Shown piece after piece: positions 11,618-13,805 of a stretch of 64,000 nucleotides of DNA. The DNA is from a virus. Location: the IMG/VR virus record IMGVR_UViG_3300009514_001427, one strand, 5' to 3'. Under the pieces are notes generated by a model. The model searched no databases. It was given only the letters and a program-made list of their open reading frames with translations, and was not told the origin of the DNA. Numbering within the stretch: the first letter of the stretch is position 1; every line of letters starts with the position of its first letter. Position numbers and translations under genes: made by a program.

Positions 11618-12090
11618 ACTGGCTACAAAAGATCTCCAACGATACGTTAGACTCTATGTTTAACACTCCATCTAGACAAGTAGTGCGCAAAGATCCTCCT
11701 CAGCAAGAGCCAGTCACTTTAACCTTGTATCACGGATCGAAATGGGAAGAGCTTAGTGATGGTCTTGTTTTAGATCCCAACAAGTCGGAGCAAGGAGCGT
11801 TGTGGTTTTCACGTCGTCCTGATGATGCTAAATGGCGTGGTCCATGGTTGGTGACGTATCCGCTACAAGCCACGAAGCATGTAGAGCGCATTCATTATGA
11901 TGATGGATCGACTTACGATGATGTACCTGAGCAGATTCATGCAGCCTGTGAGCCTACTGAGAATTGTAGATTCTATGGCGGAATTGAATTGCCTGAAGGA
12001 TGGTTCTTCAGTTACAAGGTTGAGAAGCATATAATATGTACTGTTCCTCTTAAGATTAGTCCAGATATGTTGCAGAGGGTTGAGGAATGA
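11614..12090 (+). CDS. leader-tagged protein with ART-fold (ADP-ribosyltransferase/Tpt1-like) motif
   Basis: N-term MNWLQKIS; LYHGSKWEEL...GALWFS resembles H-Y-E ART / PARP HGS...G-x-Y-F pattern. Confidence 0.45.
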   Translation: MNWLQKISNDTLDSMFNTPSRQVVRKDPPQQEPVTLTLYHGSKWEELSDGLVLDPNKSEQGALWFSRRPDDAKWRGPWLVTYPLQATKHVERIHYDDGSTYDDVPEQIHAACEPTENCRFYGGIELPEGWFFSYKVEKHIICTVPLKISPDMLQRVEE

Positions 12091-13805
12091 GTTGGCTACA
12101 GAAAATAGCCATGTTTGTTCATGGTGACGGTGAGCATCTTGTCGCTTATAAGAGCAGGATATTTCTTGTTGATCCCAATGCTCAGGACGATCCTGTGGTT
12201 CAGCAGATGGCTGAATTCTTGGGCATTCCAGCCCAGTCGGACACATGGGATTATCTAAGTTCACTAAGAGACCTACGTCCTGACATCTTGCAAGGTCGAA
12301 TAGACGGCAATGCTTTGACGCTGCCATCGGAAAACTTTCAACAAGGCTCTGGATCAAACTTATTGAAGAAGGTGGTACAGACGCTCGGATTGAGTTTTGT
12401 CAATTACGATAACGAGAATGAAACTTATCGAAGTATGAGTGATTGGCAAGTTACTGGAGAACTTCCTGAATATATGTTCCATGGCACTTCTTCCGCATCG
12501 GCGGAGCAGATTATGCGCTTTGGACTACAAGCGGACAAGACCGTATCAAACTATCCTGGCAATGGACCACATGGAGAAATTCATCATAGCGACGTAGTGT
12601 TTCTGGCGGAGGATGTAGACAGAGCTACTGGTCATGCTCTGAACGCTGCTAAGAACCAACAAGGTTTCCCTGTTATCTTCAGGTTTAAGATTCCAGATCC
12701 TAATCTTTTACTTCCAGATTACGACATAGAAGTGATGGGTGGTAATCCTGACGATGAAGACAGTGTTTACTACAATACTTACAAGGCTCCCCAGGATAAG
12801 TTCTCTCCACGCATCGAAGAAGATCCATTTTCTTTTTCGAAGAAGACTGGTGTCATGGGCTATCGTGGTAGAATTCCAGCGAACTTCATTGTTAACATTA
12901 TGATACGCCCTGAAGGGGAATCTACCAGTTATCAAGACAGTGATTGGGTTAGTGTTACCGCTCAACAATTAAGCACTGCCATAGAAATTGGTGATCCTAT
13001 GTCTTTTGATTATGAACCTGAGGATGACTGGAATGAGGGAGAAGAGTTTGAATCTTATGCATCTAATTGGATGCAAAGGATTGCTCGACAAGATCCGGTT
13101 TTCGCAGACCCTGCTGAGATGGGGTATCAAGATCAATGGGGCGAGCATCATGGCCCCGTTGAATATACTCCGGACTATTGGAACTACGGACCCAAAGGAT
13201 ACAATAGCCCCCCGATTCCGATGCCCAAGAAGTTGTACCATGCCACTCCTTATGCCGACGTTATAATGGAACAAGGATTCAAATTGCCCAAAGAGTTAGG
13301 AAGACAAACTTTTGGTGGAGGCGAGGATTTTATGTCATTCACTAGCTTGGAGAATGCTTTAGATTATCAAGCTGTGATCCGAGATCTAGTGACTGTAGCG
13401 AATGGCGATGTTGATGAAATGGAGCCTTTGGAGGTGGTTCAATATTTCGGCAGAAAATGGAAGATCAAGCCAGAGACATTGAATACGTTCTGGAGCAGCA
13501 CAGGTCGCCAAGCGGACAACCCTCGTAAAGCTGCGGTGATCTTCTTTGGATACATTCATAACTACGACGGTGGCAGGCATGTCCCGTTTATTTTCGGAAA
13601 TAGCAATGTCTTGGATAATTTCGAAGGCATGGACCCTAATGATGTTGGGGTACTAGAGGTAGAGACTCAGCCTTTGAAGTGGCATTCTGGAACGAATATT
13701 TGGCATGATACGGATATGAGAGAGCATTACACATACAACCGTCATGAGAACGAGTGGAGGATCTTCGACTCCAGCGGTATTCGTCCTGTTCGGAGGGTTG
13801 CATGA
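12087..13805 (+). CDS. leader-tagged two-module protein with two Tpt1/KptA-like (ART-fold) HGT motifs and an internal second copy of the leader
   Basis: N-term MSWLQKIA; FHGTSSASAEQIMRFGLQA...IHHSDVVFLAED resembles KptA LYHGTASRFLDEIKKQGL...YVHLSADE; second module LYHATPYADVIMEQGFKL; internal ASNWMQRIARQDP. Confidence 0.5.
   Translation: MSWLQKIAMFVHGDGEHLVAYKSRIFLVDPNAQDDPVVQQMAEFLGIPAQSDTWDYLSSLRDLRPDILQGRIDGNALTLPSENFQQGSGSNLLKKVVQTLGLSFVNYDNENETYRSMSDWQVTGELPEYMFHGTSSASAEQIMRFGLQADKTVSNYPGNGPHGEIHHSDVVFLAEDVDRATGHALNAAKNQQGFPVIFRFKIPDPNLLLPDYDIEVMGGNPDDEDSVYYNTYKAPQDKFSPRIEEDPFSFSKKTGVMGYRGRIPANFIVNIMIRPEGESTSYQDSDWVSVTAQQLSTAIEIGDPMSFDYEPEDDWNEGEEFESYASNWMQRIARQDPVFADPAEMGYQDQWGEHHGPVEYTPDYWNYGPKGYNSPPIPMPKKLYHATPYADVIMEQGFKLPKELGRQTFGGGEDFMSFTSLENALDYQAVIRDLVTVANGDVDEMEPLEVVQYFGRKWKIKPETLNTFWSSTGRQADNPRKAAVIFFGYIHNYDGGRHVPFIFGNSNVLDNFEGMDPNDVGVLEVETQPLKWHSGTNIWHDTDMREHYTYNRHENEWRIFDSSGIRPVRRVA

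Follow-up and report, generated by a model that had tools for sequence, protein, structure and literature searches.

A viral gene joining two ADP-ribosyltransferase-fold modules at an internal leader peptide, a candidate capsid-targeting tag

The locus described here raises the question of why a short peptide that heads a row of neighbouring viral genes recurs in the middle of one of them, and what this peptide is for. It is located in a 64,000-nucleotide (nt) stretch of DNA, the window, from the IMG/VR virus record IMGVR_UViG_3300009514_001427, in which an open reading frame (ORF) of 572 amino acids (aa) encodes, in this order, a leader, a module with ADP-ribosyltransferase (ART) fold (module A), an acidic linker, an internal leader and a further ART-fold module (module B; Table 1). 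A preliminary description had noticed the second leader copy at about residue 327, which was recovered as SNWMQRIAR together with all other strings quoted there, and had proposed either a fusion of two leader-tagged genes or a gene with an internal initiation site. The first of these proposals is borne out: two units, each with its own leader, are fused in this gene, because each half occurs elsewhere as a leader-headed gene of its own or joined to other partners, and the folds and the modular build were established along with the fusion. The leader itself is read, with moderate confidence, as the equivalent in this lineage of the capsid-targeting sequence (CTS) of phage T4, present here on two fused, independent ART-fold effectors.

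A homologue search among 1.84 billion representatives yielded 455 hits; the best 150 of these include no protein that spans both halves of the 572-aa protein. Module B alone was found in more than 20 proteins, most of which are headed by the leader (MNWYK..., MNWLQKIA..., MNWIHKVA...). One of these stand-alone forms, encoded on contig L002, is 89 % identical to module B of the window, and L002 is syntenic with the window with respect to, in order, the SNF2 helicase, leader-headed genes, S8 peptidase, ribosomal protein rpS21, cold-shock protein and ADP-ribosylglycohydrolase. Module A alone was found in three proteins (P0004, P0005 and P0055). Moreover, both modules were detected in combination with various other partners (Table 1), and the 209-aa module encoded downstream in the window is elsewhere fused to PcfJ, to a GNAT-like domain or to module A. 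Most junctions of such multi-module proteins (P0001, P0002, P0003, P0008, P0009, P0020, P0051 and L010) harbour a leader-like motif with a first residue other than methionine, e.g., SNWFVRIG, SNWLVRVS, SNWLKKIA, SNWFTKVA, ENWIQKIS and GNWYRVKIA. Module A is regularly followed by an in-frame leader, the content beyond which varies by genome; in P0005 it is followed only by a truncated leader and the stop codon (YASAIQQWLKSAHIT). The internal motif is accordingly found at most homologue junctions and is decayed at some others, namely in the GNAT-like fusion of L002 (KKWRDADPDAKPMALP), in P0006 (TTRKISQHYL) and in P0022 (ANFDDVIKEA). Intact N-terminal copies as opposed to partly decayed internal ones fit a weaker constraint on the latter.

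The 572-aa ORF shares ATGA overlaps with both neighbours: its start codon overlaps the stop of the gene before it, and its own stop the ATG of the gene after it. In such surroundings a single-base error could fuse two genes, and the combination of A and B was seen nowhere else among the best 150 of the 455 homologues, so that an assembly or sequencing artefact hiding a stop and a start between two genes has to be considered. It is judged highly improbable, since a small residue directly precedes N-W, as is typical of genuine in-frame junctions in independent assemblies (S, G, E or R), and the junction of the window, ESYA-SNW, has parallels in YSY-SNW (P0003) and HAS-SNW (P0002). In addition, P0005 retains the related YASAIQQWLKS after module A, and leaders at true gene boundaries begin with ATG or GTG rather than with TCT.

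The same codon bears on the proposed internal initiation site, from which module B would also be made separately. The internal leader contains a methionine (Met330), and stand-alone B genes begin with the leader. The first leader position, however, is TCT (Ser) in the window and S, G, E, R or Q in other internal copies, F, L, I or Y stands in place of Met330 in these copies, and no Shine-Dalgarno-like motif was detected within 20 nt upstream of Met330, whereas the starts at 12087 and 13802 are preceded by GAGGA and GGAGGG, respectively. In view of the missing start codon, the unconserved Met330 and the missing Shine-Dalgarno motif, it is unlikely that initiation within the gene is a conserved feature, and as an explanation of the internal leader it has very little in its favour.

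The two halves had also been described as duplicated Tpt1/ART-like modules. An internal tandem duplication of one ART module would account for the ART fold and the first-strand H-x-T motif in both halves, but profile-profile comparison (hhalign) of A and B gave a probability of 1.6 % (E 0.031) over 48 columns comprising the HGT/YHAT stretch only. Moreover, A and B differ in their inserts and in the residues proposed for catalysis (D-x-D and E-x-E, respectively), and each half forms a family with a distribution of its own. A duplication is hence barely credible, and on the profile comparison A and B represent two different ART families; the ART fold of both modules (of B by structure only) was upheld and their origin as duplicates was not.

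The leader was searched for in the six-frame translation of the window with the strict pattern [NS]W[LFMIV][QE][KRSQ][ILVE], and 10 matches were obtained as compared to a mean of 0.25 (maximum 2) in 200 shuffled controls. In eight cases the match comes immediately after the start codon of one of a series of adjacent genes on the + strand; the remaining two are the internal copy in the 572-aa gene and a match at 4982 that looks like chance. The eight genes form a tightly packed block coding for ten modules in total: a dual-specificity phosphatase (DSP), a P-loop kinase, an SNF2 helicase, four small modules without assignment, ART modules A and B, and the likewise unassigned 209-aa module. Unrelated domains share the leader also in L001, L002 and L009. 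Its consensus comprises 8–9 residues, (M/S)-N-W-[LFY]-x-[KR]-[IV]-A, and its W-L..I-A residues are spaced (i, i+1, i+4, i+5) as expected of an amphipathic helix; both structure models show a short helix at the leader.

A looser scan of the window revealed two further copies, RNWLQRMAQQ and SWLARVL. The former is located exactly between the DSP domain and the P-loop domain (AAA_33, polynucleotide-kinase-like) of the 390-aa gene product, which is therefore likewise regarded as two tagged modules fused together; the DSP phosphatase of L001 has a different module as its partner. The latter is truncated and located at the C-terminus of the SNF2 protein. Such C-terminal, truncated leader-like motifs were also found in L002, P0005, P0006, P0051 and P0063, the observed forms being SWLARVL, SNWLKRLQKPS, SNWLTRIS, QQWLKSAHIT and GNWKKIL, each directly followed by the stop codon. 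They may have been left behind when downstream modules were lost, or may indicate a tag working at either end.

The exchange of modules exactly at the leaders could suggest that these are recombination junctions at the DNA level, i.e., cassette boundaries devoid of any peptide function. Polymorphic toxins offer a precedent in the swapping of toxin domains at conserved pre-toxin motifs. Against such a function, the nine leader copies of the window have a nucleotide identity of only 64 % across 24 nt, differ synonymously in 80 codon pairs and share no exact run longer than 14 nt, while the peptide is kept across distant lineages whose modules display 36–40 % identity. A role solely as DNA junction is thus hard to maintain. 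Due to the low nucleotide identity, the many synonymous differences and the short exact runs, selection is taken to act on the leader as a peptide.

Table 1 Features of the 572-aa gene, the leader-headed block and its neighbours, and partner modules in homologous proteins
Feature	Location (nt; aa)	Strand	Basis or remark
572-aa ORF, two-module gene	12087–13805	+	ORF list, motif coordinates, coverage of one half by homologues
N-terminal leader MSWLQKIA	12087–12110; aa 1–8	+	modelled as short helix of low confidence
Module A	12114–13058; aa 10–324	+	N-terminal alpha/beta subdomain, ART-fold core, small helical end, acidic tail
Internal leader SNWMQRIAR	13062–13088; aa 326–334	+	at A/B junction
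Module B	13089–13802; aa 335–572	+	ART-fold core with helical insert
Previously quoted string ASNWMQRIARQDP	13059–13097; aa 325–337	+	motif coordinates
Previously quoted string FHGTSSASAEQIMRFGLQA	aa 131–149	+	motif coordinates
Previously quoted string IHHSDVVFLAED	aa 165–176	+	motif coordinates
Previously quoted string LYHATPYADVIMEQGFKL	aa 383–400	+	motif coordinates
Leader-headed block	6078–14431	+	eight tightly packed genes, mostly with ATGA overlaps
Starts of leader-headed genes	6078, 7250, 10288, 10482, 11015, 11614, 12087, 13802	+	strict pattern
Second internal leader RNWLQRMAQQ	6690–6719	+	looser scan; inside 390-aa gene (6078–7250)
Truncated leader-like SWLARVL	10268–10288	+	C-terminal in SNF2 protein, just before stop
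S8 subtilase	14894–16045	-	Pfam Peptidase_S8 (6.5e-59); Pro/Glu-rich linker, coiled-coil C-terminus, no leader
ADP-ribosylglycohydrolase	17301–18185	-	phrog_6572 (6.6e-30); beside block in L001 and L002
ParB-like + B	P0001, P0020		
Nudix + B	P0006		
B + ART-PolyVal	P0008		
A + ART-PolyVal	P0003		
DSP phosphatase + A + another domain	P0002		
209-aa module + A + another domain	P0051		

Module A (ART-fold core at about aa 126–275, nt 12462–12911; acidic tail at about aa 309–324) belongs to a large family with over 400 representatives, and the majority of these carry peptides resembling T4-type targeting sequences. Structure comparison revealed the split beta-sheet, NAD+-binding core of the ART-fold superfamily, while profile searches yielded only sub-threshold matches to PARP and Tpt1. 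With Pfam PARP (PF00644) the window protein scored E 0.009 and 16 bits against a cut-off of 26.7, and 13 out of 21 family members matched weakly (best 5.9e-6). Tpt1/KptA (PF01885) was matched by two of the 21 (E 0.025), and the window protein gave no match to it at E ≤ 1. The family profile aligned to solved Tpt1 structures with E 1.9e-4 over merely ~46 residues, i.e., the HGT strand-helix. Across 133 aligned members, H132, G133, G146, D211, D213 and Y259 are invariant, resulting in an H...D-x-D pattern; arginine is at no position invariant or close to it. Tpt1/KptA enzymes possess a catalytic Arg-His-Arg-Arg tetrad and an N-terminal winged-helix RNA lobe. The suggested resemblance to Tpt1/KptA hence does not extend to membership, considering the score below the PF01885 cut-off, the lack of a conserved tetrad and the different N-terminal subdomain. 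Membership in PARP (H-Y-E triad) was rejected as well: the match is below the cut-off and the histidine is present, but the second position is F172 and the acidic residues are D211/D213 instead of Glu, positions being taken from the alignment, from which the exact structural register may differ. Neither module A nor module B matches ART-PolyVal (PF18760); the PF18760 matches in P0003 and P0008 stem from an extra C-terminal domain, and the H...D pattern of module A resembles the H (strand 1), Y (strand 2) and D (strand 5) of ART-PolyVal in kind only. As judged from its model, module A is an ART-fold enzyme that is nearest to Tpt1 in shape and stands outside the Tpt1 and PARP families.

Other lineages were observed to possess short motifs of their own that are repeated at N-termini and internal junctions (P0007, P0052, P0054 and P0063; P0101 and P0142). 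One is of the W-x-Y-Q-F-x-K-T-A type (SQWTYQFVKTA), and the motif repeated at junctions of giant polyvalent proteins is of the F-x-KIAKL-x-K type. Junction tags may thus be a general feature of proteins with module A homologues.

Module B has neither a Pfam match nor a sequence match in the PDB, and its assignment to the ART fold comes from a confident structure model (predicted local distance difference test, pLDDT, 87.2). H385 (LYHATP), S417/T419 (MSFTS) and E554/E556 (ENEWR) are conserved and located on the strands that bear the catalytic residues of ARTs, making them candidate catalytic residues. Module B thereby defines an ART-fold family for which these searches gave neither a Pfam match nor a sequence match among solved structures. 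No relatives of module B were detected in IMG/VR or in GTDB genomes, and a scan of JGI metagenomes yielded six short contigs only. On another contig (L008, 114 kb), genes for a C39 (double-glycine leader) peptidase (9367–9879, - strand) and a radical-SAM/SPASM protein are located directly upstream of a gene combining Nudix and module B.

The family of module A provides the strongest clue to a link between the NW leader and capsid targeting. When the segment ahead of the first conserved strand (...FV.G.G) was compared among the 133 aligned members, 101 were found to carry an N-terminal peptide of at most 40 aa that ends in [LIVMF]-x-E ahead of the domain, e.g., MKKFQDFLAE|VFVKGG and MRAKEFLIEM|IVRH, and the same type of peptide is present in Vibrio phages of the genus Schizotequatrovirus (MKNLKSFMEELQLVTE|VFIRGG). 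The motif is internal in six members, and the NW leader occupies exactly this place in five (MSWLQKIA|MFVHG). By this alignment, the leader is positionally equivalent to T4-type peptides. In T4, a CTS of 10 residues has been defined experimentally and suffices to load foreign proteins into heads (PMC9026906); its processing is governed by residues 8 and 10 (PMC9026906, section 2.6; PMC3012670), and it represents the sole conserved part of highly diverse internal defence proteins (PMC3012670). Since the same enzyme family carries lineage-specific short tags in different phage groups, the NW leader would be the version of this lineage.

Three independent, if indirect, links to the virion agree with the packaging-tag reading. 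Firstly, module A is fused to a GH108 lysozyme and a PG-binding domain in P0052 and P0054, and occurs inside giant multi-domain proteins (P0097, P0101, P0142 and P0172) carrying Nudix and ART-PolyVal domains according to Pfam, with ParB-like motifs spotted by eye in P0172. Secondly, the sole significant viral structure match of the module B model is a protein with a MuF head-morphogenesis domain (E 6.4e-5, probability 1.0). Thirdly, a cyanophage pre-ejectosome protein was matched by the models of both modules. Taken together, the block and its relatives comprise ART, SNF2, phosphatase, kinase, ParB-like, PcfJ, Nudix and GNAT domains. ART, ParB-like, Nudix and GNAT domains have been described in polyvalent proteins, which are predicted to be packaged in virions, and PcfJ is unmentioned there (PMC5512222); this repertoire fits packaged effectors.

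Based on this evidence, we infer packaging, injection, enzymatic activity and any cleavage of the leader. The tag would direct otherwise unrelated proteins into the assembling head, from which they would be ejected into the host along with the DNA. Loss of the boundary between two leader-headed units would lead to a single polypeptide with two effector modules, in which the internal leader would be the retained tag of the downstream module and possibly a relic or a processing site. Modules A and B would each probably transfer ADP-ribose from NAD+ to a host target, because conserved residues are kept at the expected catalytic strands in both. The neighbouring ADP-ribosylglycohydrolase may reverse such ADP-ribosylation. 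The S8 subtilase encoded next to the block is a weak candidate for a processing protease. An S8 gene adjoins the leader block in L002, and in L003/L004 one is found at a distance of ~8 kb from that for module B, so that S8 lies within 10 kb in three out of six loci groups; in L001, L008 and L009 no S8 gene was found within 10 kb of leader genes.

T4 is among the known systems that come closest to the block. The CTS of IPI, IPII and IPIII is a short N-terminal peptide common to otherwise unrelated proteins, as is the leader of the eight adjacent genes in the window. Both peptides are hydrophobic-periodic (MKTYQEFIAE, with which IPII begins, versus MNWLQKIAQ) and take the same position in module A homologues, and the leader-headed genes may be likened to the CTS-headed genes of T4, which constitute a variable anti-host arsenal (PMC9026906, PMC3012670). 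The two differ in sequence, and only the T4 peptide ends in an (L/I)-x-E cleavage site. In contrast to the T4 CTS, copies of the leader are kept inside fused proteins and at C-termini. T4 Alt, a head-packaged and injected phage ART acting on host proteins at infection, serves as functional model (PMC5512222). It belongs to the R-S-E clade (PMC5512222), whereas module A displays H...D-x-D and module B H...S-x-T...E-x-E, and there is no sequence similarity.

Polyvalent proteins, known from phages and conjugative elements, likewise combine at least two effector domains in one phage or plasmid polypeptide, are predicted to be delivered together with the DNA and may contain ART domains several times per protein (PMC5512222). 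The two ART-fold modules within 572 aa resemble this arrangement; here, however, the arsenal consists mostly of separate tagged genes with occasional fusions of two to three modules. Unlike polyvalent proteins, the 572-aa protein contains no MuF, portal or metallopeptidase domain, and no MuF or portal link was found in the 64-kb window. N-terminal signals are also known to load large anti-defence enzymes into capsids (PMC9024508), and the prohead protease of giant phages acts on many of their head proteins (PMC9026906). Neither of these groups shows homology to the present proteins, and cleavage there occurs after Glu, a motif that does not accompany the NW leader.

Several observations weigh against a packaging tag. 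The Glu-terminated cleavage motif of T4, phiKZ and SPN3US is absent from the NW leader, and no conserved Glu or other fixed cleavage residue follows it. No gene for a capsid, portal, scaffold or prohead protease was identified in the 64-kb window. The truncated C-terminal copies are unexplained by the model of an N-terminal propeptide, decayed internal copies may have no function, and it is by resemblance only that the homologues' [LIVMF]-x-E peptides are regarded as CTS. Furthermore, the structure model of module A is of moderate confidence (pLDDT 71.7). The surroundings of the T4-like homologues in L005 and L007 were also searched for further CTS-headed genes, with no informative outcome.

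Part of these observations would be accommodated if the leader were an amphipathic helix directing its proteins elsewhere, i.e., to the host membrane, to a shared hub protein or to a shell formed by the homologue of the eukaryotic major vault protein (MVP) that is encoded in the window (Pfam MVP_shoulder 1.7e-23; solved vault proteins E 6e-27). The amphipathic W-L..I-A spacing, the helix in both models and the leader-like motifs at C-termini are in accordance with such a role. Membrane-targeting helices as in MinD and FtsA tolerate a C-terminal position, and eukaryotic vaults carry PARP as cargo. An alternative destination is nevertheless considered unlikely, since a peptide resembling the T4-type CTS occupies the matching position in 101 of the 133 homologues and the virion-linked fusions (MuF, GH108) point to the capsid. 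Less probable still, though not negligible, is a portable address tag of an undescribed cargo-loading system, which would function at N-termini, junctions and C-termini and mark the sites at which precursors are cut, e.g., by the S8 subtilase, the destination perhaps being the MVP-homologue shell; if so, the delivered arsenal of a phage could be read directly from sequence.

Both multi-ART phage proteins and capsid-targeting peptides are already known. No description of the NW tag was found, a full-text literature search for "MNWLQ", "MNWYK" or "NWLQKIA" having retrieved nothing relevant, nor did we come across one of such a tag heading an entire series of effector genes or persisting where modules are fused. 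Should the leader indeed be a packaging tag, the injected proteins of an uncultured huge phage could be listed from sequence alone. The list would comprise at least ten modules: no fewer than two ARTs, the SNF2 helicase, the phosphatase and the kinase, along with several modules without assignment. The block would then represent an intermediate between T4, where tagged internal proteins are separate, and the giant polyvalent proteins of other phages, with modules being fused, split and swapped exactly at the tag, and a second, unrelated short peptide would be available for loading foreign proteins into phage heads.

Two further assignments within the block were tried and discarded: a third ART in the 158-aa gene at 11614 (TLYHGS...), which has no Pfam match and no BLAST similarity to ART-PolyVal, and a kinase in the 209-aa gene at 13802 (GHGSFGVVY), which has no match in Pfam or PDB. 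Neither the ART gene nor any of the small leader-headed genes was matched by PADLOC, and promoter and terminator scans of 4500–16500 remained at chance level. Megablast of the leader block and tblastn of the 533-aa ORF at 57166 retrieved nothing from cultured phages, and the SNF2 protein gave distant helicase matches only. Judging from these sequence searches, the lineage has no close cultured, IMG/VR or GTDB relative.

The window seems to belong to the genome of an uncultured huge phage, and phage protein families are present among its genes. Sixteen tRNA genes are distributed among the protein genes at 38324–62781 (- strand), as in huge phages. Genes for rpS21 and a CspA-like cold-shock protein (16458–16899, - strand), labelled by Pfam calls made on their counterparts in L001 and L002, are syntenic with the leader block in these two contigs. 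The MVP homologue (875 aa, 48132–50759, - strand) consists of the MVP_shoulder domain and vault repeats, has no relatives in IMG/VR, and adjoins an AAA ATPase gene (51181–52404) in a phage-like region. Unusual for a phage are the metabolic gene for glutamine synthetase (33653–35044), and those for a formyltransferase (32490–33149) and a FolD-like methylene-tetrahydrofolate dehydrogenase/cyclohydrolase (35422–36231), all on the - strand. A 3808-aa ORF (18530–29956, - strand), in which laminin-G/ConA-like lectin domains are the only recognisable ones, possibly codes for a fibre or adhesin.

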